A DNA stretch of 33,998 nucleotides, from assembly GCA_038045425.1 (NCBI GenBank), contig JBBSYD010000032.1:1-33998 (forward strand), in the 5' to 3' direction. The translations under genes were made by a program, and so were the position numbers. The notes beneath the pieces were generated by a model that had not been told where the DNA came from, did not search any database, and saw nothing but the letters and a program-made list of their open reading frames with translations. Source of the stretch: Nanobdellota archaeon. GTDB lineage: Archaea > Nanobdellota > Nanobdellia > Pacearchaeales > GW2011-AR1. Numbering within the stretch: the stretch's first letter is position 1; each line of letters opens with the position of its first letter. Positions 2,286-18,707 of the stretch are shown here, piece by piece.

Positions 2286-2316
2286 GATCTAATGAGAATT
2301 TCTGGATATTTAAACT

Positions 2317-2487: not shown

Positions 2488-2494
2488 ATATAAT

Positions 2495-2656
2495 ATGGAA
2501 AAACAAACCAAATTTATTATAACTAAAAGAATTGCCAAGCATGGGAATCAGGCAATTATAGTTATACCTAGAGTTCTGGAAGAGCATTTGAAGCCAGGGA
2601 TGATCGCGGAGATTAGTATTAATTTAGTGGAGGAAGCACAAAATGGGAAGCAATAA
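2495..2656 (+). CDS. small AbrB/DUF2080-like DNA-binding protein (module 1)
   Basis: ITKRIAKHGNQAIIVIP swapped-hairpin pattern; start re-called at ATG 2495 by comparison with the paralog at 18511-18696. Confidence 0.75.
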   Translation: MEKQTKFIITKRIAKHGNQAIIVIPRVLEEHLKPGMIAEISINLVEEAQNGKQ

Positions 2657-3137
2657 AGGAAAGATTGGTTCTGTAGACACACTAGCTAATGTAACATATT
2701 CTCTCGGCGTTGGAGCATTAACTGATTTTTGGTCTGGACTGAATGCATTGGGAGTTTTATCTTCAAGATTATCTTCAGTACCATTAAACATTGTAACGGG
2801 AAGTCCTTATGCATTATGGACGGAGAAATTGTATTCTTGGACTAAGACTAAAAAAGAGTCTAGTCAATCTAGAAAATTTTTAGTAGATTTATTGGCATTT
2901 AATACTTTTCAAGTCCCAGTTTATGGTGTAGCCTTGGCAGTTGGCTCTGTATGTTCACAAACAGAAGTAGATTGGAAAAAAGTTGAATCTGGAATGACTC
3001 ATTTAGCTCAAATATCTCCATTTATTGCTCCAACTCTTAGAATGTACACTAATTCATTAAGAAAGATATTTGGTATTAAATCAATTTCTGAAGGAGCATA
3101 TAGAAATGAGCGGGAGGAAGCTGAAGATGGAAACTGA
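2643..3137 (+). CDS. AlaE (YgaW)-family L-alanine exporter-like membrane protein
   Basis: DTLANVTYS, LSSRL, PY..W and DLLAFNTFQVPVY match my recollection of the AlaE family pattern. Confidence 0.75.
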   Translation: MGSNKGKIGSVDTLANVTYSLGVGALTDFWSGLNALGVLSSRLSSVPLNIVTGSPYALWTEKLYSWTKTKKESSQSRKFLVDLLAFNTFQVPVYGVALAVGSVCSQTEVDWKKVESGMTHLAQISPFIAPTLRMYTNSLRKIFGIKSISEGAYRNEREEAEDGN

Positions 3138-3648
3138 TTATCGCCCAGAAATTCCAGTTGTAATGGTTCATCCATTCTATATCTTTCCAGATGTACCCGA
3201 ACTGAATTTGAATTTAATGCCTAAAGTAGGATTATGGACAGATGAATGCGTAACCGAAAAGCCAGCATATGTAGATAATATAATCGATTTAATAGAAAAT
3301 CATCAAAAAGAACTTATTGTTTTGGAAGAGGCACACAAAGTAACTCGTACAAGAAAATTTATTGAGCAAGTGAGAAAAGGAGATTCGGTTATGTTTATTG
3401 AAACTAAATATTGCAATCCCGAGCCAGTTTCTGGATGGGATGTTTTATTTGATAAATTGAAAGAGATTAATGCTTCTGAAGTTGGACTTGTTGGAGGGAT
3501 TAATTGTCGATTCGTTAAATGGTTTGAAAAAGAGGGATGTCTTGGTGTTACAAGAAAGAGATTATCAGAACAAGGATACACTCCTCAAATAATTAGAGGA
3601 CATTTTTTTGATATGCATGAAGAGACTAAGAGGTGGAGATATGGATAG
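3127..3648 (+). CDS. hypothetical protein (possible cysteine-hydrolase-like alpha/beta fold)
   Basis: Start re-called at ATG 3127 after GGGAGG; VMVHPFY and VGG...GCL pattern only weakly suggestive. Confidence 0.55.
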   Translation: METDYRPEIPVVMVHPFYIFPDVPELNLNLMPKVGLWTDECVTEKPAYVDNIIDLIENHQKELIVLEEAHKVTRTRKFIEQVRKGDSVMFIETKYCNPEPVSGWDVLFDKLKEINASEVGLVGGINCRFVKWFEKEGCLGVTRKRLSEQGYTPQIIRGHFFDMHEETKRWRYG

Positions 3649-5728
3649 TCAAACTGAAATTTTTGACGGAGTACAAACTGGAAGAGCTAGAAGAAAATTG
3701 ATTTCACAAGAAGGATTAACTAAATTATTGGAAACTCATGCATTTTCAGATGTAACGCCATTTACGGATGAACAAGGACAACAAAAGAATTGCTTTATTG
3801 CTAGAGAAGGAAGTGGGGGCAATACAAGATCAGTATTTATTGCTGTAGATAAGGCTCCAGGAAGTGCTGTTGCACAAATGCTTGAAAATAAAGGATATAA
3901 TTTAGGTAACGAAGTAAAAATTACATTAGGGCTACCTGTGGATGAAGCAATACTTCATGGAGTAAATCCTCTTTTGAGATTTATGGAAGTTGATGGAAAT
4001 TATGTAGCAATTTCACCCCATTTTGTTAATTCAAAATCTTTGAGAAGAAAAGTTAAAGAAGAAGGAACGTTGTCTAAACAAGAATTTGTATCTGTATTCA
4101 AACAAGTTATCGCTGCGGAGGATTATTTAATTTCTAAAGGAATAGTTCATAGAGATTTAAATCCAGGAAATATTCTTTTAAGAGGAAAAGGAAAAGGAAT
4201 TGAGAGTAGATTGACGGATTTAGCTACTGCAGGAAGTTTAGGTAATGAATCAGATAGCACGCTTCCTACTGGAGGACAGAGAGCAATAAGGGATCCTAAA
4301 TATGGTAAAGTATTTACTAATCAAACAACTAATTCTGTTCAAAATGAAATGTATGGTATTGCAATGGATGCTTTGTTTGCAATAAACGGAGCCTTACCAG
4401 TATACTATGATTTTATTAGTGGAATGGGAATTGAAACTGCTACTGGAGAAAGTTTACTTGATGAAAATGGAAAAATTGTTCCTGAAAAACATAATGCTGC
4501 AATAGATAGAGCAATCGCTAAACTTCCTCGATGGGCAAAGAGACATGCTTCTTGGATTAAAAAAGCAACTCAAAGTGAAGGAAGATATCAATCATTTCAA
4601 CAGTTTAAAGAAGATTTTGAAAAATCTGCAAGCCCTAGTTTAATTGAAAGAGTTAGAGAATTAAGTAATAAAACAAAGGGGGCAATTGCAGGAGGTTTGG
4701 TAGGAGTTATGGCATTAACTGGTGTTGGAGCAAAGTTAACATATACCCAAATTCAAAAGCAACATGAAACTGAAGTTAGTGAAGCTAGAAAATATAAAGT
4801 TAATACTGAATGGAATGGATTGACTGCTGAACTCAAGAATAATATTGCTGATTTAGAGACAGTTATATTTGTTAAAGGAAATACAAATTATTATCCTAAA
4901 ACTAAAGTACTACATGCTAACGCGGGCGGGATATTAGATTTGAGTATTAGTGCAATTGACAAACAGACAGGTGATACCTTACCAACTATGCCTGGAAGAG
5001 TATATTTAGAAGGCGTTGATACAAATGATGTTCCAGTTCAATCATTTTATATTAGTCCCGTAAATAATAGTCAGACTCCTAGTGAATCTAGTTCGTTTAG
5101 TGGAGACAAAAAAATAGTCCTTCCTAAAAATCTACCTGATGGAAATTATATTTTAGCAGTTGAATTACAAATTCCTAGAATTAAAATGAGAGATGACGAA
5201 TGGGACATAAAAGCGAAAAAGAAACATTTAGCGAAAGTTGCATACCAGGGGAATACTTTATCTAGAAAAAGAATTCCTATTGTAGTTGGGAAGCCGTCTC
5301 AAGAAGTAGATTTAGGTAATGTATATATTGCAGGATATGGCTTTGATTCTGTATCGTTTAGAGACTTAAGAGAAGGTGAGATATATGGAGATAATTATGC
5401 TTCTCCTCGGGGGAAAAACATGGAATATGAATTTTATTTATTTGGAAAATGCATTTCTCAATCAGGTGACAGTTATACTGGTATTTGGTTACCTGAAGTA
5501 AATAATACTGCTTCGGATATTCTGAATGTGGTTATAAAAGAAAATGGAATTCCATTTACATATAGTGGTATTCCTGTTGAAAGAGTGAATGAATTAGGGA
5601 GATATAGATGGAAAGTTTCTAATTTTTGTCCTGAAGATATGCCTAAAAGAATTGCTGATTTTAGAAAGAATTATGAGTCTAGCTTGAATATAGCTCATTC
5701 TTCAACTAGTGAGAAAACTAGTAAATAG
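3641..5728 (+). CDS. membrane-anchored Ser/Thr (Hanks-like) protein kinase with extracytoplasmic beta-rich domain (module 1)
   Basis: Gly-rich loop EGSGGN, catalytic loop HRDLNPGNILL, DFG-equivalent TDLA, TM segment GAIAGGLVGVMALTGVGA; start at ATG 3641 after GAGGTGGAG. Confidence 0.85.
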   Translation: MDSQTEIFDGVQTGRARRKLISQEGLTKLLETHAFSDVTPFTDEQGQQKNCFIAREGSGGNTRSVFIAVDKAPGSAVAQMLENKGYNLGNEVKITLGLPVDEAILHGVNPLLRFMEVDGNYVAISPHFVNSKSLRRKVKEEGTLSKQEFVSVFKQVIAAEDYLISKGIVHRDLNPGNILLRGKGKGIESRLTDLATAGSLGNESDSTLPTGGQRAIRDPKYGKVFTNQTTNSVQNEMYGIAMDALFAINGALPVYYDFISGMGIETATGESLLDENGKIVPEKHNAAIDRAIAKLPRWAKRHASWIKKATQSEGRYQSFQQFKEDFEKSASPSLIERVRELSNKTKGAIAGGLVGVMALTGVGAKLTYTQIQKQHETEVSEARKYKVNTEWNGLTAELKNNIADLETVIFVKGNTNYYPKTKVLHANAGGILDLSISAIDKQTGDTLPTMPGRVYLEGVDTNDVPVQSFYISPVNNSQTPSESSSFSGDKKIVLPKNLPDGNYILAVELQIPRIKMRDDEWDIKAKKKHLAKVAYQGNTLSRKRIPIVVGKPSQEVDLGNVYIAGYGFDSVSFRDLREGEIYGDNYASPRGKNMEYEFYLFGKCISQSGDSYTGIWLPEVNNTASDILNVVIKENGIPFTYSGIPVERVNELGRYRWKVSNFCPEDMPKRIADFRKNYESSLNIAHSSTSEKTSK

Positions 5729-6576
5729 TTATTTATCTTTATTATAGTATCTAAAAGCTCTATCAAGTTTGCATCAATTTTATCTTTACTGGAAACTGAT
5801 TTTTTTATGAATTCATATCTTTTAGCACATTCTACAAGTTCTTTTTTGTTAAATTCAAATATTAATTTTTTAAAATAGGATAATAACTCTCTACTTTGAG
5901 ATATGGTTTTAATTTGATTTTTGTTTAGCTTATCTGTTTTGCTTTCAATTGCTATTTTTTTATAGCTATCTCCGATTTCTTCTAAAAGATTTATAATTCC
6001 ATAGATTTGAGAGGTTTTTTCAAATTCCTTATAGCTAGATTTATTTAGAATTCGCATACAAAAATGGCACAATCTATTTACACTAGAGTCTACTTGAATT
6101 ACTTGTTCTAATTCACTTCCTTTTTGTAAATTTAATGCTAATTCTTCCGCCATGGAGTCGAGTATTAAAAAAATTCTTTTAATTAGTTCATCAATATCTT
6201 GATTTTGTGAACCAGTTACATCTTTTAGAATAAAAGTAGTTTGAGTTTGTTTAATTATTTCAAATCCCAAAAGTTCAGAAATAACTCTTTTTTGAAAGTC
6301 TTTTACATCTTCTTTATTGCTAAATGTCGCTTCAATTTCATCGACTCCGTGAACATAAAGAGCAATAAATGAACGATTTATTAATGGAGAAAGTCCTGAA
6401 ACATCAATTTTAACTTTTTTTTGAATTGGAGAAGAATTTGCTTCTATAATTAATTTGTTTTCATCTTCAGTAACATTAATATTATTTCCTTTATTCAATC
6501 CATTTCTTTCTATCCATTTTTTAGGTAGATAAATTGTATATCCTCCTCCGCCTTGCTGAATTAGCTTTCTTTCCAT
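5695..6576 (-). CDS. AbrB-PhoU family regulator (archaeal phosphate-uptake regulator-like; module 1)
   Basis: RKLIQQGGGGYTIYLPKKWI AbrB domain, LYVHGVDEI, GFEII, DSSVNRL and LEEIGD PhoU-like helices. Confidence 0.88.
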   Translation of the reverse strand: MERKLIQQGGGGYTIYLPKKWIERNGLNKGNNINVTEDENKLIIEANSSPIQKKVKIDVSGLSPLINRSFIALYVHGVDEIEATFSNKEDVKDFQKRVISELLGFEIIKQTQTTFILKDVTGSQNQDIDELIKRIFLILDSMAEELALNLQKGSELEQVIQVDSSVNRLCHFCMRILNKSSYKEFEKTSQIYGIINLLEEIGDSYKKIAIESKTDKLNKNQIKTISQSRELLSYFKKLIFEFNKKELVECAKRYEFIKKSVSSKDKIDANLIELLDTIIKINNYLLVFSLVEE

Positions 6577-6597
6577 GATGAATTGTAGACTTTTGAC

Positions 6598-6637
6598 TAT
6601 TTAAACATTTTGATATCACTGATATCATTAATATCAG
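6598..6637. promoter_or_regulatory. TATA box of the AbrB-PhoU gene plus three 9-bp-spaced T(G/A)ATATCA boxes
   Basis: Minus-strand TTTAAATA at 6598-6605; TGATATCA 6611-6618, TGATATCA 6620-6627, TAATATCA 6629-6636. Confidence 0.6.
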
Positions 6638-6764
6638 AAAGATATTAAAGGGAACTTCTTGATTGATTGTTGTGTAATTACTTAGTAGTTACATAAACAA
6701 CCTGAGCGCGTAGGGTAAAGAGATTTCCTCTAAAGACTTCTTAGGTTTGTAGGAGAAAAACAAA

Positions 6765-8000
6765 ATGAAAAACACAATAAGAAACGGAATAAATACAGGG
6801 TTAGTTGGACTTAGTACCTTGATAAGTGCAAATGCTCAGACACCTCAAGGTAATCTGGATAGAATGGCAAGTCAATTTGATGAAGGAAGAGTAAAGAGTG
6901 AATTCAATAGCGACTTTGATGATAGAAGCACAGTTATGACTACTTTAGGTTTTGGACCAAAGGGAACTTATTCTATCGAAGGAAAACCTCAACCTAGTTA
7001 TGGACAGATATTTGAAGCATTTAGATTGTATGATACATTCTCTAAGGGAATGGGAAATGCAAGAGGAGCAGAGTGGAGTCATTGGACTGCGGCAGGATTT
7101 AGGTCTTCATTGAATATTGGTGGATTGGATCAAAAATTCTTAGTATACGGAGTTGGAGGAGATAAACAAGGAATTGGATTTGATATTGAACCTAGAGTGA
7201 GTGAGCATTTATCACTTAACTTAGTAGTTGAAGAAAGTTTGAGAGATAACCGAGAAAGAATTGGAGGAGGAATTAATTTACAAATTGGAAAACCTCTTAC
7301 TATTAATTTAGGATATGATGAAGTTAGCAAATCTGGAATTAATCAGATTTCTCAACCTCATGTAAGAATAATGTATGATATAACTCCAAATGACGCAGTT
7401 GGATTTGCATTTGCAGAAAAAAATATGCCTGGAAATACTGAACATGGAGTTGGAATGTTTTATGCTCACTGGGGAAAGGATAAAACTTGGGGAGGAAGAG
7501 TATATGAGGATATTAGAAGTGATGAAAAAGGAAACTTTGCTCAAGCTGGACACGTAATATTTGCACCAAATAAGAATTGCACTGTTGGAAAAATGGGAAT
7601 TGCTGGAGCACTTGCAAGAGTTCCTTCTGAAGATGGAGCATTCAATAATGGAGTTTTACCAACTACTGTTAATAGACTTGAAAAATTGGAAACACATGAT
7701 AGGACATATGAAGGACTTGCGTTTAGATATAATTGGAAGAGTGCAGAAGCGGGAAATAAAAAATCTGGATATTACTCTGGAGATGTAGCTTACAATTTCA
7801 AAGAAGGAATTTGCGGAGGAAGACTTGGAGTTACAGCAGGGATGGCATATAATTGGAGCAATTTTGCTAAAGATGGAATTACATTTAATCCTTCATTCGC
7901 TTACAGACTTGGAAATGTAGATGCTGAAGCAGGATTAGTTTTGCCTTTGAATACTGATGACAAACCAATGGTAAGATTTGGTTTGCAGGGATGGTTTTAG
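6765..8000 (+). CDS. secreted beta-strand-rich protein, beta-barrel-like, C-terminal Phe (module 1)
   Basis: Signal peptide ending ANA-Q; alternating Gly/aromatic strands; ends VRFGLQGWF; RBS AGGAG. Confidence 0.6.
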   Translation: MKNTIRNGINTGLVGLSTLISANAQTPQGNLDRMASQFDEGRVKSEFNSDFDDRSTVMTTLGFGPKGTYSIEGKPQPSYGQIFEAFRLYDTFSKGMGNARGAEWSHWTAAGFRSSLNIGGLDQKFLVYGVGGDKQGIGFDIEPRVSEHLSLNLVVEESLRDNRERIGGGINLQIGKPLTINLGYDEVSKSGINQISQPHVRIMYDITPNDAVGFAFAEKNMPGNTEHGVGMFYAHWGKDKTWGGRVYEDIRSDEKGNFAQAGHVIFAPNKNCTVGKMGIAGALARVPSEDGAFNNGVLPTTVNRLEKLETHDRTYEGLAFRYNWKSAEAGNKKSGYYSGDVAYNFKEGICGGRLGVTAGMAYNWSNFAKDGITFNPSFAYRLGNVDAEAGLVLPLNTDDKPMVRFGLQGWF

Positions 8001-8001
8001 A

Positions 8002-8334
8002 ATGGACAAACTTTACACAATATTGCTTGGAGAGTTGGTTATAGGGACAATATCCCAGGGGTACGGATATGTTAAAGGAATTAAGAAAGGGATCGAATGG
8101 TCTGCTCCAGTTAAGGTTATTCAAACAGATCTTAATGGAGATGGAGTTAAAGATATTATAGTTTATAATGATTTAAGAAAAGATAATTCTAGAATATTTA
8201 TTGCAAATACAAACGGAACTTATACTCCTTGGGAGGTATATAAGTCTAATTTAGTTAATCAGCCTAGAGAAGGAATAGAGAAACTTGAGAGAGAAGTTGA
8301 ATCTAGAGTGAAGGGATTGGAGGGAAGACAATGA
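8002..8334 (+). CDS. small membrane-anchored protein with DxNxDG loop, array paralog P1
   Basis: N-terminal TM helix, DLNGDGVKD, NTNGTY, C-terminal charged helix ending EGRQ; start re-called at ATG 8002. Confidence 0.75.
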   Translation: MDKLYTILLGELVIGTISQGYGYVKGIKKGIEWSAPVKVIQTDLNGDGVKDIIVYNDLRKDNSRIFIANTNGTYTPWEVYKSNLVNQPREGIEKLEREVESRVKGLEGRQ

Positions 8335-8837
8335 CCTCCGAACTAACAACCCTAGGATGGATGAAAGAACTTCGAGACAAGGCACCTATGAATTATTATG
8401 GAATAAGCGGAGCTTTAGAATTGTATCTTAACGCGCAAGACATGATTGAACTTAGTAAAACTGGAAAAGTAAGACCACGTACTGAAGCGAAAAAGAAATT
8501 AATTAATTTAACTAATACAATAGGATTAGGTGTTCCTATATCTGCAATGATTGGAATAGCAACAATAGGTGGAGCAGTTGCATTTGGATTTTATAACGGA
8601 ATAACTGGACAGCCGGCACTAGGAAATGGAAATGGATTGAATGCACGGGACATTGTTGAACTATGCGGAATTGCTGGAGCATCGGGAGCACTTGCAACTG
8701 GAGCAATTATTGAAAGAGAAAATTTAGGAGAGACAGTAAAAAATGTTGCAGGATCATTAACATTTTTTCCTGCAGGAGTTGCAATGTATCACGGAATAGG
8801 ATTTGGAATTGGATGTTTAGCAAGGGAGATGATATAA
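8331..8837 (+). CDS. hypothetical Gly-rich multi-pass membrane protein
   Basis: Several Gly/Ala-rich hydrophobic segments; ATGA- and TAATG-coupled to its neighbours. Confidence 0.7.
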   Translation: MTSELTTLGWMKELRDKAPMNYYGISGALELYLNAQDMIELSKTGKVRPRTEAKKKLINLTNTIGLGVPISAMIGIATIGGAVAFGFYNGITGQPALGNGNGLNARDIVELCGIAGASGALATGAIIERENLGETVKNVAGSLTFFPAGVAMYHGIGFGIGCLAREMI

Positions 8838-9166
8838 TGGAATCTTTTGACAAAATAATGATTGGACTAATCGGATTCACCTTAGGAGCATTAGGAATTC
8901 TTAAAACAATAGATTATGTGGCAAAATTGGGCGAGCCACAAACTATAGTTTCAACAGATCTTAATGGAGATGGAGTTAAAGATTTAGTTATTTATGGAAA
9001 TCGCTCTTGGGATTCTAGAGGGAAAATATTTATCGGAAATACAAATGGAACTTATGCTCCTTGGAAAAGTTATAGATCTAATTTAGTTAATCAGACTAGA
9101 GAAGGAGTGGAGAAGCTTGAGAGAGAAGTTGAGTCTAGAGTGAAGGGATTGGAGGGAAGACAATGA
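8837..9166 (+). CDS. small membrane-anchored protein with DxNxDG loop, array paralog P2
   Basis: TM helix, DLNGDGVKD, NTNGTY, ends GLEGRQ; start re-called at the TAATG overlap at 8837. Confidence 0.75.
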   Translation: MESFDKIMIGLIGFTLGALGILKTIDYVAKLGEPQTIVSTDLNGDGVKDLVIYGNRSWDSRGKIFIGNTNGTYAPWKSYRSNLVNQTREGVEKLEREVESRVKGLEGRQ

Positions 9167-9750
9167 GTCTTCAATTTAAACTCGGGGGACAAGAAGATAT
9201 TCCACAAGTAAAAGAACTTTTGGGAAGAAATTTATATTTAGGTATTCCTATGGGGCAGAGAGCAAATAATGGCTTTTTGAGATATGATATTGAACCTGAA
9301 GTTTTTGATAGATGTGCAAGAGAAGGAAATTTAGTTGTAGCTAGAAATGAAAGAGAACTTGCAGGATATATGGTTTGTTTTACAAAAGAACAAAGCATGA
9401 ACAATCCATTCTTTTCTGAATTTTTAAGAAATGCACAAGAAATGGAATTTGAAGGTAAAAAAATTAGCAATTTGAATTTTGTAATTTACGCACAAGTTTG
9501 TATAGATAAAAGATTTAGACATCAGGGAACGTTAGCAGGGCTTCATAGAACTATGAGAGATATTCAAAGAGAAAAATATGATATTGGAATTAGTGAAATA
9601 GATCAAGAAAATGCTGTTTCATGGAATGCTAATATAAAAAGAGCAGGAGTTATTCATGTGGGAAATTATGCAGCAAGTAGTGGAGCAAACTGGAGAGTTG
9701 TTGTTTTGAATTTACATAAGAAGTTACCATTTGATGAGGGAAGACAATGA
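9163..9750 (+). CDS. GNAT-family acetyltransferase
   Basis: LAGY strand, QVCIDKRFRHQG acetyl-CoA-binding motif A, EIDQEN..S. Confidence 0.8.
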   Translation: MSLQFKLGGQEDIPQVKELLGRNLYLGIPMGQRANNGFLRYDIEPEVFDRCAREGNLVVARNERELAGYMVCFTKEQSMNNPFFSEFLRNAQEMEFEGKKISNLNFVIYAQVCIDKRFRHQGTLAGLHRTMRDIQREKYDIGISEIDQENAVSWNANIKRAGVIHVGNYAASSGANWRVVVLNLHKKLPFDEGRQ

Positions 9751-10754
9751 GCATCGATATTGTAATATTAGGTACGGAAAAGGGAAGTAAAGTTGTTCCG
9801 CTTGCTGAAATTGCTCAGAAATTTGGAAAAGCGGAGGATGTAAAGAGTTTAGAGAGATGTGGAACAACTAATTTGTATAGATTTGCAGAGGGGGAGAGTT
9901 TAGAGTCAAAGGCGACTGAAATTGTTAGAGGATTTTTAGATATTCCTGAAATACAAATCAAGCCGTCTGGATTATCTCCACCAGAACAAAACATTTCTGG
10001 AATATTTTCTAGTGTTGCATGTACTACTAGTGATTATCAAATGCCTGGGCTAGCAAGAAGTGTAGGACATAATCTTGGACTTTCAGGAATACCTATGATT
10101 AATTTGAGTATGGGTTGTGCTGGAGGAATGCATGCTCTTCAAATGGCTTACAATCAGTTAGTTGTTGATTCTGTTAATGGAAAAAGAGCAAATTATGTTG
10201 TTATAGCTGGAGATCATACTTCTAGAGTGTTGGATAAGGAAGCTTGGGATACTGCGGGAATATTTAGTGATGGAGTTGCTGCTGCACTTGTAAGTAATTA
10301 TGTTCCTGGGCCGTTTAGTATTAAGAAAATAGGAAGTACTAATCTTGAAGGAGATATTCATTCTATGAGAATTGATTCTAAAGAGAAAATATTTAGAATG
10401 GATGGAGGAAAGGTTTTTGATTTTGCTACTAAAAAAGTATTTCCTGCCGCATTAGGATTATTAGGATTAGAGAAATTACCTGAAAATGTTTATTTTATTC
10501 CTCATCAAGCAAGTGGAGCAATTCTTGACGGGATGAGAAGAAGACATAAAATACCTACAGAACAATTTTATTCTGATGGAATTAAAAGAGAGGGAAATAT
10601 TCCTGCCGCTTCTGTTTATTTTGGATTGCTTGATGCTGAAAACAAAGAGCTTTTTGGATATAAAGACGTAATTCTTTGTGGTTTTGGTGCTGAACTTGCG
10701 GTTAGTGCGGTATATTTGAAAAATAATTTGAATGGAGGAAGTGAAAATGAATAA
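9747..10754 (+). CDS. 3-oxoacyl-ACP synthase III (FabH)-like condensing enzyme
   Basis: Cys-His-Asn triad: MGCAGG, IPHQAS, GNIPAASV; FSDGVAA; FRMDGGKVF; GFGA. Confidence 0.85.
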   Translation: MSIDIVILGTEKGSKVVPLAEIAQKFGKAEDVKSLERCGTTNLYRFAEGESLESKATEIVRGFLDIPEIQIKPSGLSPPEQNISGIFSSVACTTSDYQMPGLARSVGHNLGLSGIPMINLSMGCAGGMHALQMAYNQLVVDSVNGKRANYVVIAGDHTSRVLDKEAWDTAGIFSDGVAAALVSNYVPGPFSIKKIGSTNLEGDIHSMRIDSKEKIFRMDGGKVFDFATKKVFPAALGLLGLEKLPENVYFIPHQASGAILDGMRRRHKIPTEQFYSDGIKREGNIPAASVYFGLLDAENKELFGYKDVILCGFGAELAVSAVYLKNNLNGGSENE

Positions 10755-11097: not shown

Positions 11098-11507
11098 AAA
11101 CTTCAAAGTTTAATGGAATTGAAGTAATCGCTTTTAATTATGAAACTCATTTTGAGGGATTAAAAACAGGAGATTTAATTCTTTACCCTCAATTGACCGC
11201 GTCAGACTTTTCTGATTCGGCTAAATTAGATGGAGACCCTATGCGTATGAATGGAGTACATCAAATTGCAATAAATTTTAATGATTTATGCATTGCAGTT
11301 ATAACAAAAAAACAAGGAAACTTTGTTGACTACTTAGCTACAAGACTTAATGGAAGCACTAAAAATGGTACATTATGCCTAGACTATGGACTTAATGGAA
11401 CTGCAATTCTTCATAGAGAAAGCGAAGGAAAACTAGTACTTTACTGTAGCAAGCCTAAATCAGAAATTGTGCAAAGATTAACAAATGAATCGGAGGGAAG
11501 ACAATGA
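11094..11507 (+). CDS. hypothetical protein
   Basis: 137-aa ORF bounded on both sides by the 15-bp junction motif; no visible similarity to P1-P4. Confidence 0.7.
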   Translation: MKTSKFNGIEVIAFNYETHFEGLKTGDLILYPQLTASDFSDSAKLDGDPMRMNGVHQIAINFNDLCIAVITKKQGNFVDYLATRLNGSTKNGTLCLDYGLNGTAILHRESEGKLVLYCSKPKSEIVQRLTNESEGRQ

Positions 11508-11965
11508 ATTGGAATAAGGCTTTAGTTCTGGGTGCATTAGGATTTAGCTTTGTGACTGGAATAATTATTGGAGACCGAGTTCGGTATTTAGCAATTAATA
11601 AAGCAAATGAATCATCCTACTCTTTAGGATATCATCAAGGAGTAAGAGACTCTGTTCCAACACATATATTCTCAGAAGAGGTGAATAAAGACGGAATTAA
11701 AGATTTAGTTGTTTACAGCAGGGCATATACAAATGGCTCTGCGATATATATAGGAAGCACAAATGGAACATTTGAGAGCTTTGATGAATATAAGGAAAAA
11801 GTTCTAAGAGAATATAAATTTAAAGTAGAGAATCTTGAAGCGGAACTAAACTCCATACAAAGAAAAGTAGGAAGTGGGATATATGAGTCTAAATTAAGAG
11901 AAAATATGAAAGAGCCTTCTGAGTGGCAGGCAATAGAGAGGCCTGAATCTGGAGGGAAAAGATGA
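11504..11965 (+). CDS. small membrane-anchored protein, array paralog P4
   Basis: TM helix, EVNKDGIKDLVVY, STNGTF, C-terminal charged helix; ends in the degenerate junction. Confidence 0.7.
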   Translation: MNWNKALVLGALGFSFVTGIIIGDRVRYLAINKANESSYSLGYHQGVRDSVPTHIFSEEVNKDGIKDLVVYSRAYTNGSAIYIGSTNGTFESFDEYKEKVLREYKFKVENLEAELNSIQRKVGSGIYESKLRENMKEPSEWQAIERPESGGKR

Positions 11966-11982
11966 ATGAAAATAATAAAATC

Positions 11983-12159: not shown

Positions 12160-12164
12160 TTTAT

Positions 12165-12911
12165 CTATTCTATAGTCTCCAAATAAGATTTACTTCTTGT
12201 ACTTGCAACATAAACAGCTTCCGTGTGTCTACGAAATACTCTCTGTACATCTAAAAATCCAGTAACTTCTAGTCTGTTAGTAAATTCACTTTCTTTTAGA
12301 ATCAAGTCATCTTGATTATCCCTTAGATAATGCTGCTCCCAATAAGTTCTTAATTCTGGTTTGCCTATTCTATCAAATTTCTTAAACTGTTCCATTTGCC
12401 AGGCTAAACTTTTCTCATGTGCCTTGGGATCATCTTGGGCTATTTTATCTGCATTGATGAATAACTTGTCTACTCCGAGTGCACAATAGACTGCATTTAT
12501 TAATGAATCCCGTTTGGTTCTAGGTAAATTATGAATCATAAATGCAGTTACAATTGCATCATATTTTGCTCTTAATGTTCTACAAGCTTCTTCTGCATCC
12601 AACTCAAAAAGGTTTACTCTTCCAGCTAAATTTTGTTTTCTTAACTTGCTACCTATTTGTACAATCATATTATTCTCGTTGTCTACTGCATCGACAATTA
12701 TTCGAGGGTCTGCGTTAAGAATAATCTCAGTAGTAATTCCGGTACCGCATCCAAGTTCAAGAACTCTAAAAGTTGAATCATCTCTTTTTTCAAACCGTTC
12801 GGTCAATATTCGACCTATAACTTTCTCAGCCATTCTTGCCGGTCCAAAAGCAGTTCGATAAACTAAGTCATATTCCAAACTTTCAGAACCTGAAAATCTT
12901 TTTTCAATCAT
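12165..12911 (-). CDS. class I SAM-dependent methyltransferase
   Basis: VLELGCGTG motif I, AVDN, YDAIVTAFMIHNL, FINAD. Confidence 0.9.
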   Translation of the reverse strand: MIEKRFSGSESLEYDLVYRTAFGPARMAEKVIGRILTERFEKRDDSTFRVLELGCGTGITTEIILNADPRIIVDAVDNENNMIVQIGSKLRKQNLAGRVNLFELDAEEACRTLRAKYDAIVTAFMIHNLPRTKRDSLINAVYCALGVDKLFINADKIAQDDPKAHEKSLAWQMEQFKKFDRIGKPELRTYWEQHYLRDNQDDLILKESEFTNRLEVTGFLDVQRVFRRHTEAVYVASTRSKSYLETIE

Positions 12912-13618
12912 TTTTTAGGCCCCTCTAATATCGTAATAAAATCACCCATATTATCTCTCGCAAATCTTGGCCAAGATCTAGTAGTTGTGATCTTGTTGTG
13001 AAAATATTTCTGCATCAAAGGAAGTCGTTTAGCAAGAGAGGTCTTAAACTCTCCATCTGCTAAAACATCATTAGATATTATATCTGCAGTCGCCTGTATA
13101 ACGTCATCTGGAGCACCATTTTTTATTGTCTCTTTAAGATATTCATATCCCAATCTAGCAGCTTCTAATTTTCTTTCCTTCTCAGTTGAATAATCTCCTA
13201 TATAACAGTCAGAGAGTATTGCAGTTCCTGAAGGATTAAGCCAGTAGGCCATCCTCTGGATTACTTCCTCTTGTCTTTTATAGGGAATATGATGCAAAGC
13301 GCCAGTACATGCAATTACATCAAAATGTTCGGCAGATCCATATTCGAGGACATCTTTTAACTGAAAATTATGTTCTGGATATTTTTGTCTTGCATGTTTG
13401 ATATACTCTGGATCTATGTCAACGCCTTGTAAAGATAAGTCGGGTCTAGTCCTTGAAACAAGCCCTAACAAATATCCTGGTCCACACATCAAATCCAAGA
13501 CAGTTCCACTTTTAGGAGCATGCCTAGTTATTATACCCACAACTCTATGTATTGAATCTCTGTAGGGCATGAACTCAAGCTCTCGCTCATAAGTCTGGGC
13601 AGGAGGAAGAGGTTTCAT
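12908..13618 (-). CDS. class I SAM-dependent methyltransferase
   Basis: VLDLMCGPG, GVDID, FDVIACTGALHHI, LNPSG. Confidence 0.9.
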   Translation of the reverse strand: MKPLPPAQTYERELEFMPYRDSIHRVVGIITRHAPKSGTVLDLMCGPGYLLGLVSRTRPDLSLQGVDIDPEYIKHARQKYPEHNFQLKDVLEYGSAEHFDVIACTGALHHIPYKRQEEVIQRMAYWLNPSGTAILSDCYIGDYSTEKERKLEAARLGYEYLKETIKNGAPDDVIQATADIISNDVLADGEFKTSLAKRLPLMQKYFHNKITTTRSWPRFARDNMGDFITILEGPKK

Positions 13619-14043
13619 TTGGTTACCTCTTTCTCATCTAAAATTTGTTGCAATCCTGAAGTTCTTAGAAATTCCCTGACTGCTTCCTGTGCAGGAATGG
13701 GCTCTTCATATGGAATATGATTAAGTCTTATTAAGTTTCTAAGCTTTATTGCGGCGAGTAAAGATTTAAACTCGCCTTCTGCCCACACGTTATGCCCATA
13801 ACTATCTTTATCTGAGTCGTATACTAATTTCACAGTAGGTTCTCCTCCAGAAAATTCTCCTATTTTTTGATAAGGATGAAATGACCTACCCGCAGGGCAG
13901 TCTTCTCTGAATATTGTCCTAGAAGAATAATCGATGCCAAAACCTAAAGATTCTAAAAATACTGGAAAAGAAGGTTGTAGATTTTTAGGCATTATCCAAT
14001 TACTCCTGCATAAAACATCCATATTGAATTCAGAATCTGCCAT
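13615..14043 (-). CDS. hypothetical protein
   Basis: Start re-called at ATG 14043 just after the upstream stop, with GGAG RBS; ATGA overlap with the next gene. Confidence 0.65.
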   Translation of the reverse strand: MADSEFNMDVLCRSNWIMPKNLQPSFPVFLESLGFGIDYSSRTIFREDCPAGRSFHPYQKIGEFSGGEPTVKLVYDSDKDSYGHNVWAEGEFKSLLAAIKLRNLIRLNHIPYEEPIPAQEAVREFLRTSGLQQILDEKEVTK

Positions 14044-14044
14044 A

Positions 14045-14506
14045 TCATCTGTTCTCCTGAGAAACATTGGGGGAAGTCAATTTTTCTCCTCTCTCGCCGC
14101 CTACAGTAGATCCTTTAGATATGACATCATATCCTTTATCTCTCAAATACTCCAAATATTTTGCAGCTACAGGCCTTTTAATCGGATTAACAATACCAGA
14201 TTCATACTTGTAAAGATCTATTTCGTGAACTCTACATTCAAGTTTATCGATCAATGCTCTTCTGTTAAGCCCATCGTCCTCGCGAATTTTTCTTGCCTTT
14301 TTACCATCGAATGGTGAATGTCTAATTGTAGGTTTAGGTTTACGTGCAAGTTTCTCAAGAGAAGACAAGATAAAACTTCTTTGTTTTTCTGAATCTGACT
14401 CTAGATAACGTGTTCTTAGAATGGAATAATTTGTATCCAATAAGGATAGTTTCGCATTCATTAATTGATTCTGCAAATCATCGGATTCTATTTGTGGGGA
14501 GTCCAT
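14045..14506 (-). CDS. XRE/Cro-like helix-turn-helix protein
   Basis: IREDDGLNRRALIDKL...LYKYESGIVNP HTH pattern; start re-called at ATG 14506 after the stop of the upstream gene. Confidence 0.6.
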   Translation of the reverse strand: MDSPQIESDDLQNQLMNAKLSLLDTNYSILRTRYLESDSEKQRSFILSSLEKLARKPKPTIRHSPFDGKKARKIREDDGLNRRALIDKLECRVHEIDLYKYESGIVNPIKRPVAAKYLEYLRDKGYDVISKGSTVGGERGEKLTSPNVSQENR

Positions 14507-14507
14507 T

Positions 14508-15281
14508 CTAAAACTTCTTTGTAAGGCCAAACTCAAAAACAGAGTTATCCTTGAAAGTTCCTCCAAGTGACTTAAATGCTTTTTGGAATCTTGTTCCTGC
14601 GCTAGCTGAGAATCCTTTTCCAAGATTGTAATTTAAGCTCGCTCCACCTGCTACGGTTGTAAATCCCCTGCCATCGACAAAATAGCTATTATTGTAAGTT
14701 GCACGAGTTTCTAAAGACAAAGAAAGCCTAGTGGATATCGGAGTTAAAGGAATATTTTTAGCCGCTCTAAATTGAAACAACTGCCCATCATATGTTCCTT
14801 CACCAATCGCGTGAGCACCATATAGACTAAGATCTAATGGTAAACCTTTAGAATGTAATCCTAATCCTAAGGTGACAGATGTTGGAAACGCTTTAGTTGG
14901 AGAGCTAAATACTATTGCGTCAGGTTTTAGAGTAAGATATTTTGTTTCTATGGCTGTTGAAAAAGTATGATCTGCTTCAGTCCATCCTTTATTCAAATCG
15001 TAATTATTCCAGAAATCATAATTTAGTCTACCAACACTAAAAGAAAGATCACTAGTTATTACTGGTCCATCTGAAAGAGTGAATCCATAGGTCCCAAGAT
15101 ACTTTGAATGAAATCCAGAATTTAAAGTTACATTTTTCGGTGCTAACTCTCCTAACTGGTCTTTAATCCATGATGTCTGTGCAGGGCTATTTGTAGACTG
15201 AGCATTCGCTTGAGAGGATAATGCTGATGCAACTATAATCCCTAATGCAAAGTTAGTTATTTTTTGAGTTGTATGTTTCAT
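14508..15281 (-). CDS. secreted beta-barrel-like protein resembling TorF/Gcw_chp-type putative porins (module 2)
   Basis: Signal peptide ending ANA-Q; SKY..G...DGPV, W.N.D...E.D.T pattern; amphipathic strands; ends VFEFGLTKKF. Confidence 0.6.
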   Translation of the reverse strand: MKHTTQKITNFALGIIVASALSSQANAQSTNSPAQTSWIKDQLGELAPKNVTLNSGFHSKYLGTYGFTLSDGPVITSDLSFSVGRLNYDFWNNYDLNKGWTEADHTFSTAIETKYLTLKPDAIVFSSPTKAFPTSVTLGLGLHSKGLPLDLSLYGAHAIGEGTYDGQLFQFRAAKNIPLTPISTRLSLSLETRATYNNSYFVDGRGFTTVAGGASLNYNLGKGFSASAGTRFQKAFKSLGGTFKDNSVFEFGLTKKF

Positions 15282-15349
15282 GTTTATTTTCTAGTAACCC
15301 CTATCAAGTTACAATATAACTCGTGAAAAGATGCTATTAATATCTATTG

Positions 15350-15373
15350 ACTATTATTAATATTAATAATAGT
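15350..15373. promoter_or_regulatory. perfect 24-bp palindrome (putative operator) in the divergent promoter region
   Basis: ACTATTATTAATATTAATAATAGT is its own reverse complement; 5 bp upstream of TATA-like TTAAAAAT (15379-15386). Confidence 0.6.
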
Positions 15374-15406
15374 AAAGCTTAAAAATAGAAGAATATTGGA
15401 AGAATC

Positions 15407-16312
15407 ATGATAAGAAAGCTTATAGGTCAAGGTTTAGGGGGAATGACTATTCATTTACCTAAGAAATGGATAGAGGCATATCATTTGAGCAAAGGTGATG
15501 ACATTTATATCGATGATGCAGAAGGAAAATTAATTATTTCCCCTAAGAGCCAAAAATTAAAGAGGGAGACAACAATTAAGTTAATAGGACTTGAAGAGTC
15601 TTTAATTAGAATTCTAATAGGAAATACTTACCGCCTAGGATTCGATAAAATTGTGGTTGAATTTGAGAGCGAGAAACAATTTGAGATTTTACAAGAAGTA
15701 ATTCAGAAAAGAACTATCGGTTTTGAGATTGTAAAAAAAGAAAATAAAAAATGCATTGTAGAGAACGTTACAGAACCTTCTGAAGATCAGTTTGATAATA
15801 TCCTTCTAAAAATCTTTATGAATATTGATGAGTTATTTGAAGAAACAAGTAAGAGATTAAATCTTGTTAAAGGAGAAAAGCAGGAAAATATTGATGAGAT
15901 TGAAGATAGAATAATACGTTATGATCAATTTTGTAGAAGAATTCTTCTTAAAAAAAGATTTGAGCCAAAGTCTAGTCTGCATCTTGCATTTATACTCATG
16001 ATAATCCACGGGCAGAGAGAATTATATTACCTAACTAAAGCAGTTAGTAAAGAAAATAAGTTTTCTAAAGAGACTTTAGCCTTGTTTTCAAAGATTCTAG
16101 AATTATATCGTCTTGTAAAAGAAGCTTATCTTGCTAAAGAATCATCTCAACTAGCTCAGATAAATAAACAAGGACGAGATATAATATACAAGAAAGGATA
16201 TTCTTTAATAGAAAAAACAAAAGGAAAAGAATCTATTATAATTTATCATTTACTTGCCTGCGCTCGTAATTTTTACCAATCAGTTAGTTCTTTGAGCGGT
16301 CTTTTGCTCTGA
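15407..16312 (+). CDS. AbrB-PhoU family regulator (module 2)
   Basis: RKLIGQGLGGMTIHLPKKWI, YRLGFDKI, GFEIV; paralog of 5695-6576. Confidence 0.88.
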   Translation: MIRKLIGQGLGGMTIHLPKKWIEAYHLSKGDDIYIDDAEGKLIISPKSQKLKRETTIKLIGLEESLIRILIGNTYRLGFDKIVVEFESEKQFEILQEVIQKRTIGFEIVKKENKKCIVENVTEPSEDQFDNILLKIFMNIDELFEETSKRLNLVKGEKQENIDEIEDRIIRYDQFCRRILLKKRFEPKSSLHLAFILMIIHGQRELYYLTKAVSKENKFSKETLALFSKILELYRLVKEAYLAKESSQLAQINKQGRDIIYKKGYSLIEKTKGKESIIIYHLLACARNFYQSVSSLSGLLL

Positions 16313-18511
16313 CGCTTCTAATTGAGAACGATATCTTGCAACTTTCTCTGTAAACTCTCTAGGTGGACGAGCAAGATCCCAATCAAGAAGCTTATACCCT
16401 CCAAGGGGTCCATATTTTAGAGGATATGCTGTAGAAAGTACTTTCTTGCCAGATGCTTTATCTCGAATATCTAAAAGAAAAGTATAATTTCCTACAGGTA
16501 TATTTGTCCCTCCTGGAAGTGGGAGTGTCACTAAATGAGGCCAGTTAACTTGAGAGTAATTCAATTCAGGTATGCGACAATCCATTTCATAGTTATCTCT
16601 AAAATTGTACTCTAGACCATTCAATAGCCCATTAGTTGGATTAAATGTATCAAACTGTATCTCATTCTGAAGATATGAAAACTGTACTTTAGATACTCTA
16701 AGAACTTCAGAAGGCATTTTTCCAACTATTAGAGGAATTCTTTCTTCGACAAGAGCATTTGTTCCATTTGCCTTTATAATAAAATCTATGTCATCTCTAG
16801 AATTTACTTCTTTTGGTGGAAATGCATTTACTATAATCGTATAGTTTCCTGCAGGCATGTTTGTAGGTATTCTTAGCGATGCAAAATTTTTATTAAACTG
16901 ACCCCCTGGAGGATATCCCCTTGAAGAAACAGACTTAGGGTTAGTTGATAAGCTATTAAACTCTTCAGAAGGTATATTCGTCGTCCCCTCAACTGAAACC
17001 TTTATAGGATAAACTAAGTAAGGAACTCTAAGATTTCTTGAAGGCAAAGGTCTTTGGAGAATATCCCCCGTAACAGTTACAATGTCTCCAGGTTTAGCTA
17101 ATATTAATTTAGTTTTTGATGGATAATGTTGGTCATTTGTAGAGGCACGATCATAACAATCTGCTCTCGCTTTCATATCAAACAATGCAGAAGGCACAAG
17201 TCTATTATTTCCATCCCAATCAGCATCTAATAATATTGTCTTTTGCTCATCCCCCATAAGTTGTCTAGCATAATTCAAAGCGTTAGAATTATTTATGGCG
17301 ATATTCGTCCCAGCTCCAAGTGCCACGAGCCCAGTTAAAGCAATTAACGAATTTCTAACCCAATGTTTTTTTACTTTCTGCCAAGTACTTGGCTTTTCAA
17401 CACAATCTAATCTTTTAACTAGACCCATTAGTGTAGGAATTCTTTTAGAGTCATATCTTAATCCATCGTAAAGTAATTCTTTGTAGTCTTTTGCATTTTC
17501 TGGTAATCTATCTAAAGCAGTGCTCAACATTTTGTCGTATTCATTTTCATCAAAAGGATTTGAATCATAAGGACTTACAGGCAGAAAATCTTCACCCAAA
17601 AGCATCATCCCAAACATTTTTGTTAGAGAATAAACTTCTGACGCCTGATCGTATTTTGAAGCTTTGCCAGTTCTCGCACCCATTAATCTTGGGTCACAAG
17701 TCTTTCTTCCAGGGCATGAATGAGTGAATTCATCAACTTCTTCATTAGGTCTTCCAGCAGCAGAAGTATCTGTAATAACTAAATCTCCCTGTCTTCCACC
17801 TAGAGCTACTAAAAGATTAGAAGGTTTAAGATCCCTATGTAAATGACCTGTTCTAGCAAAAAATGCTTGACTCTGTTCAAACATCTTTCTTGCATAATGA
17901 GTAGCAATATGAACGGGTAATGTTTTCTTTTGTTCAAGTATTTGTTGCAATGAAGCTGAAGGAACAAATTGTTCAGCATAAGCATAACATCCAAGATATC
18001 CTACATCTGAGAGGTCCCTTCCTTCTACTGGAGAAGAAAATCCAGTTAATCCACTTGTCTCAATAGCCATACTAGCTTCACGTCTTGAATTATACTCCTT
18101 CCTGTAATGTTTTAACATTGCTGGCGAAGCAACAGAAACAACTTCGCTTTCAGGTTTATCCATTTTTACTGCAAAGATTATATGTTTTTGCGAAGCGCTG
18201 TCAAAAACTGGCTGAGCTACAAAAACGTCTTTTATGTTTCCAGATTGATAATGCCCCCAATCATTCCATTGGGGAAACTTTGATTTCAGAGCATCGGCTT
18301 TTGCACGTAATTCAGGAGTTAGTTGAATATAAGGGACAATAGGGGGTTGTGAAACATCGCTCAAAAATTCTTTAAGAGTTTGAGGTTTTGGTTGATCTGT
18401 AAAAAATAGAGATCTAAACCCACTCCATAAACTTTTTCCAAGAGTTCTTTTGATAGATTCTTCATTTTTACTAGGTGCATTCGCAAGTGCCAAGTCCATT
18501 TCTAGGCTCAT
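16280..18511 (-). CDS. membrane-anchored Ser/Thr (Hanks-like) protein kinase with extracytoplasmic beta-rich domain (module 2)
   Basis: FAVK lysine, HRDLKPSNLL, ITDTS, SEVYSL, TM LIALTGLVALGAG; C-terminal P.GNY and RIP.IVGK shared with kinase 1. Confidence 0.88.
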   Translation of the reverse strand: MSLEMDLALANAPSKNEESIKRTLGKSLWSGFRSLFFTDQPKPQTLKEFLSDVSQPPIVPYIQLTPELRAKADALKSKFPQWNDWGHYQSGNIKDVFVAQPVFDSASQKHIIFAVKMDKPESEVVSVASPAMLKHYRKEYNSRREASMAIETSGLTGFSSPVEGRDLSDVGYLGCYAYAEQFVPSASLQQILEQKKTLPVHIATHYARKMFEQSQAFFARTGHLHRDLKPSNLLVALGGRQGDLVITDTSAAGRPNEEVDEFTHSCPGRKTCDPRLMGARTGKASKYDQASEVYSLTKMFGMMLLGEDFLPVSPYDSNPFDENEYDKMLSTALDRLPENAKDYKELLYDGLRYDSKRIPTLMGLVKRLDCVEKPSTWQKVKKHWVRNSLIALTGLVALGAGTNIAINNSNALNYARQLMGDEQKTILLDADWDGNNRLVPSALFDMKARADCYDRASTNDQHYPSKTKLILAKPGDIVTVTGDILQRPLPSRNLRVPYLVYPIKVSVEGTTNIPSEEFNSLSTNPKSVSSRGYPPGGQFNKNFASLRIPTNMPAGNYTIIVNAFPPKEVNSRDDIDFIIKANGTNALVEERIPLIVGKMPSEVLRVSKVQFSYLQNEIQFDTFNPTNGLLNGLEYNFRDNYEMDCRIPELNYSQVNWPHLVTLPLPGGTNIPVGNYTFLLDIRDKASGKKVLSTAYPLKYGPLGGYKLLDWDLARPPREFTEKVARYRSQLEASEQKTAQRTN

Positions 18512-18696
18512 TAGTAGTTCACCTCATTTTGATTATTATCTAAAACATTATCTTCATCTAGAATGTCAATCGTCAGTTGAGTAAGCATTCCAGGCTTAAT
18601 TATTTCAGAAAGATGCTTTGGAACTACAATTATAGTATCGCGCCCATGCTTGGCAATTCTCTTTGTAATTATAATTTGGCGTCTTTTGGTGTTCAT
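18511..18696 (-). CDS. small AbrB/DUF2080-like DNA-binding protein (module 2)
   Basis: IITKRIAKHG...IIV.P...KPGM shared with 2495-2656; TAATG-coupled to the kinase. Confidence 0.78.
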   Translation of the reverse strand: MNTKRRQIIITKRIAKHGRDTIIVVPKHLSEIIKPGMLTQLTIDILDEDNVLDNNQNEVNY

Positions 18697-18707
18697 TGTG
18701 GATATCT

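Follow-up and report, generated by a model that had tools for sequence, protein, structure and literature searches.

Mirror-image receptor-kinase and AbrB-PhoU cassettes, each a candidate switch for a divergent barrel operon, in a Nanobdellota archaeon

The window analysed here, a stretch of 33,998 nucleotides (nt) that forms the leading 34 kb of a 108-kb contig of a Nanobdellota archaeon (JBBSYD010000032.1, assembly GCA_038045425.1), carries a mirror-image pair of gene cassettes. In each arm, a gene for a small protein with a KHG motif precedes a gene for a receptor serine/threonine kinase, the kinase gene converges on that of an AbrB-PhoU regulator, and the regulator gene diverges from that of a secreted protein followed by variable cargo. 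On balance, each arm is probably a DPANN receptor-kinase/transcription-factor cassette controlling the divergent barrel operon, a reading suggested by the recurrence of the gene order in other genomes, the joint divergence of kinase and regulator, and the conserved blocks between the regulator and the gene opposite. The assembly (genome G000 below) comprises 1.2 Mb in 108 contigs and is 85% complete; no 16S rRNA was found in it. The closest relatives of the window proteins are records named Nanoarchaeota, Woesearchaeota or Pacearchaeota archaeon, and the ESM Atlas label is Nanobdellota. The left and right window cassettes are called WinL and WinR, and loci from elsewhere carry L-numbers. The two arms comprise the following features, with lengths in amino acids (aa) and ORF standing for open reading frame.

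2468..2656, + strand: small KHG-motif protein, left; ORF, probable start 2495
2643-3137, + strand: AlaE-like gene, left insert; Pfam AlaE, 69.3 bits
3070-3648, + strand: 192-aa ORF, left insert
3608..5728, + strand: receptor Ser/Thr kinase, left; Pkinase, 44.3 bits; probable start 3641
5695..6576, - strand: AbrB-PhoU regulator, left; MazE/AbrB, 32.9 bits; 34-nt overlap with the kinase gene at the 3' end
6577..6764, no strand: divergent control region, left; TATA-like box, then AT-rich GATATC / AATATC / GATATT repeats
6765..8000, + strand: secreted barrel-like protein, left, 411 aa; signal-peptide-like N-terminus; ends GWF
7978..11965, + strand: left cargo operon; assigned by Pfam, NCBIfam and paralogy
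12165..14506, - strand: right cargo; two S-adenosylmethionine (SAM) methyltransferases, a 150-aa ORF and a ~153-aa ORF
14508..15281, - strand: secreted protein, right, 257 aa, modelled as a 12-stranded beta-barrel (AlphaFold2); signal peptide; ends KKF
15282..15406, no strand: divergent control region, right; 22-nt perfect palindrome at 15351-15372
15407..16312, + strand: AbrB-PhoU regulator, right; MazE/AbrB, 28.0 bits; 33-nt overlap with the kinase gene at the 3' end
16280..18511, - strand: receptor Ser/Thr kinase, right; Pkinase, 37.4 bits; transmembrane residues 387-406
18511..18696, - strand: small KHG-motif protein, right; ORF; stop overlaps the kinase start by 1 nt

An earlier sequence-only reading of the window had given the same gene order, strands and ORF positions, with two extra genes between the left small gene and the kinase (here the AlaE-like gene and the 192-aa ORF), and its left start positions are the favoured ones, 2495 being the likelier start of the small gene and 3641 having the better Shine-Dalgarno sequence in front of the kinase. 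It had also described the paired proteins as strongly diverged, and BLASTP agrees for the three homologous pairs: 51% identity over 45 aa for the small proteins (E value 5e-17), 22% over 462 aa for the kinases (7e-17) and 36% over 195 aa for the AbrB-PhoU proteins (8e-33). The two barrel-like proteins, for which no likeness in sequence had been claimed, show no similarity (best E value 0.19).

That the genes form a conserved unit, as the sequence-only reading proposed, is borne out by their co-location in other genomes. Loci were collected with a kinase-side profile built from the ectodomain alone (A2) in samples of 401 genomes of the phylum and 401 of the order, and by one metagenome scan. 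Matches occurred in 9 genomes of the phylum sample and 10 of the order sample (G000 included), and in 9 of 355 genomes of the same family; the metagenome scan with the ectodomain alignment gave three loci, with the cassette in L054 alone, and L055 and L056 were dismissed because the match covers 49 residues of a 1245-aa protein. The loci inspected were 14 regions around ectodomain matches and L054, leaving out the weak matches in G237, G138 and G071 (E values 4e-5 to 6e-4; ORFs of 181-481 aa) and the kinase-domain-only match in G033. The order of small gene, kinase and convergent AbrB-PhoU is kept in all 12 complete loci outside the window, and three loci interrupted by contig ends (L074, L079, L080) hold remaining genes that are consistent with it. 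The geometry is tight across 14 complete cassettes, namely these 12 and both window copies: the kinase and AbrB-PhoU genes share 9-63 nt at their 3' ends in 11, the small gene either overlaps the kinase gene or is no more than 1 nt away from it in 12, and the spacer between AbrB-PhoU and the fourth gene measures 87-188 nt in all 14.

A reciprocal search from the right-hand barrel extends this picture. The profile of its family (A3) matches 26 of the 355 same-family genomes, two of which (G467 and G739) are among the nine with the window's kinase type. Loci from 12 of the 26 genomes were inspected, and AbrB-PhoU stands beside the barrel in seven; a convergent Pkinase gene follows in six of these, and the seventh ends at a contig edge. 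The six kinases are 520-601 aa long, score 28.6-92.7 bits against Pkinase and differ in their C-terminal part. The gene preceding the kinase encodes the KHG-motif protein in three of the six and a CopG-type ribbon-helix-helix protein of 46-50 aa in the other three (L085, L089, L091; RHH_1 by Pfam in two, the third judged from sequence). Since barrel loci occur with other kinases and, in cases taken up below, with TrmB, the cassette is broader than one kinase subfamily and the barrels also pair with other regulators. Among relatives found in the searches, barrel relative P0013 and kinase relative P0003 come from contigs of the same size, 406,493 bases.

One further arrangement was seen at the closest relative of the right cassette, L072 (G739:C80), where positions 155-1414 hold a second small-protein gene, nearer to the left-copy type, divergent from the first and 377 nt from it, and then, at the edge of the contig, a 168-aa fragment ending in Phe. 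The arrangement is a hint that the pairing of two cassette types may recur.

The symmetry of the window, and nothing beyond it, would favour a recent inverted duplication or an assembly artefact, and the evidence makes either hardly credible. Each window copy clusters with foreign loci and not with its partner, WinR with L072 and WinL with L073 and L076, and approximately unbiased (AU) tests reject the window copies as sisters (p 4e-89 for the kinase, 4e-47 for AbrB-PhoU). Ranked by similarity among 91 pairs, the window pair comes 84th for the kinase, 59th for AbrB-PhoU and 71st for the small protein. Because a sister relation is rejected, the copies are old paralogues from two subfamilies, which arose through ancient duplication or separate acquisitions and not by recent inverted duplication. 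No long inverted DNA repeats joining both arms were found, the inverted repeats between them amounting to just two short stretches of coding sequence, one of 35 nt at 86% and the other of 40 nt at 73%. An assembly artefact, a risk that the sequence-only reading had raised, is likewise not what the reads suggest. Contigs from four sequencing runs tile positions 2001-19500 with no differences and at even depth, and a single contig covers 9134-19500, including the meeting point of the arms; contig breaks are confined to 8124-9163, at a 142-nt, 89% repeat between two cargo paralogues. The four runs represent two samples from one study, possibly the source of this DNA, so they are short-read data that are not independent of the assembly. 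Given this tiling and the recurrence of gene order and orientation in other genomes, the mirror arrangement is neither chance nor a visible assembly artefact; it is confirmed as real as far as short reads can tell.

The phylogenies of kinase and regulator, a comparison that the sequence-only reading had proposed, have four clades in common: WinR with L072, L067 with L075 and L077 (the last two paired), L068 with L070, and WinL with L073 and L076. Two subclades can be distinguished in the AbrB-PhoU tree. The identity matrices of kinase and AbrB-PhoU correlate (r 0.33, p 0.016), as do those of kinase and small protein (r 0.53, p 0.002), with p-values that are generous because the matrix rows are mutually related. 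The type of barrel-like protein also follows the kinase clades, B1 occurring in WinR and L072, B2 in WinL, L073 and L078, B3 in L067 and L075, and B4 in L068 and L070; seven changes of barrel type are needed on either tree, against a shuffle mean of 9.4-9.5, and as few were reached in 15 and 4 of 1000 shuffles. This tracking is what would be expected if kinase and AbrB-PhoU were a regulatory pair and the barrel were the extracellular partner or ligand of the kinase instead of its transcriptional target, with an ectodomain that monitors barrel assembly or occupancy in the manner of an envelope-stress sensor. The ectodomain is indeed family-specific and the fastest-diverging part of the kinase. 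Joint inheritance alone could produce the same tracking, and we regard a barrel that is the kinase's partner and not its target as rather unlikely, although the idea is compatible with control of the barrel operon by the cassette and the two could be combined.

The kinases consist of a cytoplasmic Hanks-type domain, one transmembrane segment and an ectodomain (about 330 aa in the left copy), with single hydrophobic segments at residues 356-375 on the left and 387-406 on the right. Both score above the Pkinase cut-off (PF00069, 31.7 bits), as reflected in the feature list, and the domain was matched in all 16 family members. Without exception, the 16 aligned kinases have the HxD motif, the catalytic Asn, the Asp of DFG and the Glu of APE, and the beta3 Lys is present in 14 of them, including the right copy, which keeps all catalytic residues. 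Profile searches with the ectodomain gave no Pfam or PDB match other than a sub-threshold Y_Y_Y. The right kinase is rare, with just three close homologues (47-58% identity) among 5.8 billion protein clusters, and the whole protein as query found nothing in 7 congeners or in 24 same-family genomes. A contig scan with the whole kinase was uninformative, its generic HRDLKPSN motif drawing in 50 ordinary bacterial kinases. The two window kinases are the sole large Pkinase genes of the assembly, the third match being a 211-aa ORF. Complex prediction with kinase residues 1-385 and AbrB-PhoU gave no support for a contact, scoring 0.01 against a mark of 0.32, in a run made without controls.

The N-terminal domain of the regulator is clear from sequence. 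AbrB/MazE (PF04014) lies above its cut-off of 24.7 bits in both copies, at the scores listed above, and was found in 16 of 16 members. For the helical remainder, the pointer to PhoU is structural: the Atlas model of the right protein matches archaeal MazE+PhoU clusters end to end, with feature scores of 0.96-0.97 and template-modelling (TM) scores of 0.84-0.92, and over residues 1-301 it reaches a TM score of 0.84 with a cluster whose members have PhoU in 98% and MazE in 95% of cases, a comparison between predicted models. The matching clusters have 403, 462 and 57 members and are 97-100% archaeal; profile search of PDB sequences returned nothing useful for AbrB-PhoU. The window proteins appear to share this two-part architecture with the archaeal AbrB-PhoU proteins called 'putative phosphate uptake regulator', the name of the nearest named Atlas structural cluster and the usual annotation of such proteins. 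A phosphate-homeostasis regulator that sits beside unrelated genes by chance is nevertheless very unlikely here. No phosphate-transport or Pst, PhoR or PhoB-type gene is named among the 42 window ORFs in an NCBIfam scan, in keeping with the sequence-only reading, which had noted the lack of phosphate transport genes; and what accompanies the regulator from genome to genome is a Hanks kinase instead of a transporter. The kinase-linked regulators differ from other archaeal AbrB-PhoU proteins in forming a cassette of their own. Two further AbrB-PhoU paralogues occur in G000, one at a contig end (C19:17291-18172) and one on a 2.2-kb contig (C18:908-1954), with partners out of view, and the assembly may conceal further cassettes.

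The small protein is not detectably the AbrB/DUF2080 protein that the sequence-only reading took it for. Pfam gave no AbrB, MazE or DUF2080 match, and six of the seven members scanned were matchless at E values up to 0.1, the right copy alone showing a weak HicA_toxin match (E value 0.017). Comparison with the AbrB-PhoU profile gave an hhalign probability of 0.15%, the PDB held no match at an E value of 0.09 or better, and of the 120 relatives among the matches listed, from a total of at least 3135, not one has a Pfam domain. The protein instead belongs to an unnamed family of at least 3135 clusters whose named relatives are all hypothetical proteins of DPANN archaea, and its core, ITKKIAKHGxQxIIVIPR, is conserved in 16 of 16 aligned members; forms of about 100 aa, roughly double the usual length, also occur. 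Two more paralogues in G000 (C32:90239-90409 and C108:13806-13967) head other small operons, far from any kinase.

The MazE_antitoxin match of the regulator also raises the thought of a conflict system, anti-virus or toxin-antitoxin-like, with the kinase as effector or toxin, the AbrB/MazE-type proteins as its antidotes and the barrel as a membrane-permeabilising effector. The kinases match the PADLOC models PD-T4-6, mad6 and PglW, and the cargo methyltransferase MT2 matches mad2; the cassette is patchily spread, as the family-level counts and the search of congeners with the whole right kinase illustrate, and more than one diverged copy per genome is possible. All the PADLOC and NCBIfam matches are restricted, however, to generic catalytic cores (e.g. 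residues 138-196), with scores such as 32.3 bits against a curated cut-off of 460 for MADS6 and 26.1 against 990 for PglW. The window kinases therefore differ from the kinases of PD-T4-6, MADS and BREX PglW in lacking a full-length match. A transmembrane helix with a large ectodomain fits sensing outside the cell, the AbrB-PhoU proteins form archaeal clusters with hundreds of members, and the window scans found no nuclease, PIN or MazF partner. Taken together, a conflict system is unlikely.

The fourth position is filled variably. The sequence-only reading had described a four-gene module, and this holds for the three-gene core of small gene, kinase and AbrB-PhoU; the fourth slot, to judge by sequence, is a positional class of at least seven unrelated families, with other content in 2 of 14 cassettes. 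Outside the window, the fourth-slot proteins make up six or more additional groups without profile similarity to one another, hhalign across eight fourth-gene groups aligned only the signal peptides of B1 and B2, and the right-barrel hidden Markov model A3 did not detect the other barrel groups. In both window slot proteins the N-terminus is a hydrophobic stretch that ends in ANAQ, and the last residue is Phe. A terminal Phe is found in 10 of 17 slot proteins compared with 57 of 1066 genome ORFs (5.3%), a comparison in which the slot proteins are interrelated and the trait helped to select them.

The right-hand protein is confidently modelled as a closed 12-stranded porin-type barrel. It has 65 relatives among 1.8 billion representatives, and its alignment holds 56 rows (the query and 55 relatives, after 10 fragments or long multi-match proteins were left out). 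The AlphaFold2 model from these rows, with a predicted local distance difference test score (pLDDT) of 89.9, has 12 strands running from residue 49 to the C-terminal Phe. Foldseek assigned it a probability of 1.0 to PcoB, NanC and Tsx, led by PcoB (E value 2e-7) and followed by NanC, Tsx and the intimin barrel; VIA-align gave Z scores of 16.7 for KdgM (root-mean-square deviation 2.8 over 167 residues), 16.2 for PcoB, 15.8 for FapF and 15.7 for NanC. The model thus superposes on 12-stranded outer-membrane channels of the KdgM, NanC, PcoB, FapF and COG4313 kind, with which the protein shares its signal peptide and C-terminal Phe, and distant family members match MipA, OMP_b-brl_3, Gcw_chp and Porin_2, each in 2-4 of the 56. 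It differs from such channels in being 10-13% identical to solved structures, in its archaeal gene, and in a genome in which no Omp85/BamA (PF01103) was found at 85% completeness; the control search was positive in 7 of 14 reference genomes, all of them diderm bacteria. Named members of its family are 'archaeon' and Pacearchaeota records. To our knowledge, no outer membrane is known for this archaeal group.

The left-hand protein is a less certain case. Its homologues come solely from the same slot of L073 and L078, a word-index search returned the protein itself alone, and the single-sequence AlphaFold2 model (pLDDT 30.8) is unusable. In the ESM Atlas it lies close to bacterial clusters of the OmpG type and of other beta-barrels, with a feature score of 0.93 and TM scores of 0.50-0.55 for a low-confidence model, a placement that is a lead towards a barrel and not proof of one. 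A third signal-peptide-bearing, Phe-terminated, barrel-like gene (279 aa) is present in G000 at C66:2206-3045, preceded by a lipoprotein gene and not far from a regulator that is TrmB-like by eye.

The spacers between AbrB-PhoU and the barrel gene share an organization in which a TATA-like box comes first and AT-rich repeats follow. Seven non-window loci have 33 invariant spacer columns in common, both window spacers align with those of five further loci, and the motif GATATTAAWRG occurs twice in the whole window, once in each control region. These conserved blocks, together with the gene geometry, suggest that kinase and regulator control the surface protein and its cargo. We infer the phosphorylation partners, the DNA binding at the intergenic blocks, the signal and the destination of the barrel in the following scheme. 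The receptor kinase would sense something at the cell surface through its family-specific ectodomain, and would act on the AbrB-PhoU protein encoded tail to tail with it, perhaps also on the small protein encoded just upstream, through phosphorylation or through docking of the PhoU-like helical part. AbrB-PhoU would in turn control two promoters, that of its own gene and the divergent one 90-190 nt away; the latter would drive the secreted porin-like barrel and a variable set of envelope and modification genes, often methyltransferases.

Several results weigh against this scheme. The PhoU part of the regulator is weak by sequence, with 16.8 bits on the left against a PF01895 cut-off of 23.5 and no match on the right, and it was matched in 2 of 16 members at E values up to 0.1. 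The left kinase and that of L078 show Ala in the aligned beta3-Lys column, where the alignment is perhaps off by a few residues; the left kinase is perhaps a pseudokinase, or a different Lys may serve in its place. No PP2C phosphatase (PP2C_2) was found in the 85% complete genome. AbrB-PhoU and small-protein identities are uncorrelated (r 0.11, p 0.24), and the AT-rich operator-like motifs are weakly enriched, with 15 matches against 8.2 expected and 3 of 100 shuffles as high. The fourth gene is missing from the slot and replaced by something else in L069 and L071. Seen from the barrel, a kinase with this type of ectodomain is lacking in 24 of the 26 genomes that carry the right barrel's family, and 5 of the 12 inspected barrel loci have no AbrB-PhoU, two of them (L086 and L088) carrying a Pfam-confirmed TrmB in its stead.

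The cargo varies by locus, with SAM methyltransferases as a recurring element in WinR, L067, L072 (SFM1-like), L073 (three), L076 and L092. Those of the right cargo lie at 12165-12911 and 12908-13618 and match Methyltransf_25 at 43.9 and 58.3 bits; homologues of MT2 are found in the cargo of L073 (49%) and L076 (42%). The left cargo comprises four paralogous small transmembrane proteins with an FG-GAP-like repeat, a type shared with L073, a 168-aa membrane protein, a 195-aa ORF, a FabH-like ketosynthase and a 137-aa ORF. The FabH-like ketoacyl synthase III (9747-10754) scores 109.6 bits in NCBIfam, under the family cut-off, and adjoins the 195-aa ORF, which has no family; fatty-acid or polyketide-type chemistry would be unusual for a DPANN archaeon. 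Five junctions of the left cargo share GGAGGGAAGACAATGA (8311-8334, 9143-9166, 9734-9750, 11074-11097 and 11484-11507), which consists of a Shine-Dalgarno sequence, a spacer and an ATG overlapping the stop, so that five consecutive proteins end in EGRQ. GGAGGGAAGACAATGA is a translational-coupling cassette and not a protein motif. Cargo genes of L073 and L082 have similar endings, GGK, GRK or GEK.

Other features of the window adjoin the two arms. Positions 2317-2382, in front of the left small gene, hold a direct repeat of 33 nt in tandem, which is 97% identical and contains an inverted repeat; it may be an operator of the small-gene/kinase operon, and the right arm has no counterpart. The AlaE-like gene of the left insert has a paralogue at C32:68798-69280. 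A 58-aa ORF without family (11983-12159, - strand) stands alone where both cargo sets converge. Just outside the right cassette, a ferric-reductase/NOX-like membrane flavoprotein (19121-21260, - strand; Ferric_reduct, FAD_binding_8 and NAD_binding_1) adjoins an ApbE-like flavin transferase. The NCBIfam scan of window ORFs also named TFS, RtcB and Lrp-type regulators.

The signalling half of the cassette is of a kind known by analogy from bacteria. For the phosphorylation of AbrB in Bacillus subtilis, Kobir et al. 2014 is reportedly the primary paper. According to an excerpt of PMC6213207, the Hanks kinases PrkC, PrkD and YabT phosphorylate AbrB in B. subtilis, and the cassette resembles that system in combining a membrane-anchored Hanks kinase with an AbrB-type regulator, on which the kinase may act by analogy. 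Unlike there, the kinase and regulator genes converge in a fixed arrangement, the regulator has a helical part resembling PhoU, the ectodomain is non-PASTA and without known family, and the organism is archaeal. A second parallel is PhoU, which binds the sensor kinase PhoR and modulates its signalling, as an excerpt of PMC13577022 states; here too a putative PhoU-fold protein accompanies a membrane sensor kinase, and binding between them would be conceivable by the same analogy. The differences are a Ser/Thr kinase in place of the histidine kinase with a PAS domain, fusion of the PhoU-like part to a DNA-binding domain, a PhoU match below the Pfam cut-off, and the lack of a Pst transporter nearby.

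The presumed target class, a porin-type barrel in an archaeon, is the unexpected half. Archaea are not expected to make bacterial outer-membrane pore-type proteins. The sequence-only reading did not recognise the arrangement as a described system, and our search of the full-text literature found no paper on such a cassette or on porin-type barrels in Nanoarchaeota. A possible distant relative of PopA in Altiarchaeales is mentioned in an excerpt of PMC12228718.

Signalling in DPANN archaea has barely been explored, and how these tiny symbionts sense and contact their partners is an open question. Because the kinase has a fixed place next to a transcription factor and the promoter that this factor probably targets, the circuit proposed here is directly testable. 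If the right-hand barrel sits in a membrane, it would challenge the idea that barrels of this kind are confined to the outer membranes of bacteria and organelles, and it would bear on the nature of the DPANN envelope and on the passage of metabolites across it. A bolder picture, which we hold to be doubtful but worth stating, is that some DPANN archaea make bacterial-type outer-membrane pores without BAM and insert them either into an outer layer of their envelope or into the host cell's membrane; a kinase/regulator cassette for each barrel would then switch it on upon a matching surface or host cue, and the several cassettes of one genome would be a toolkit for different partners or conditions.

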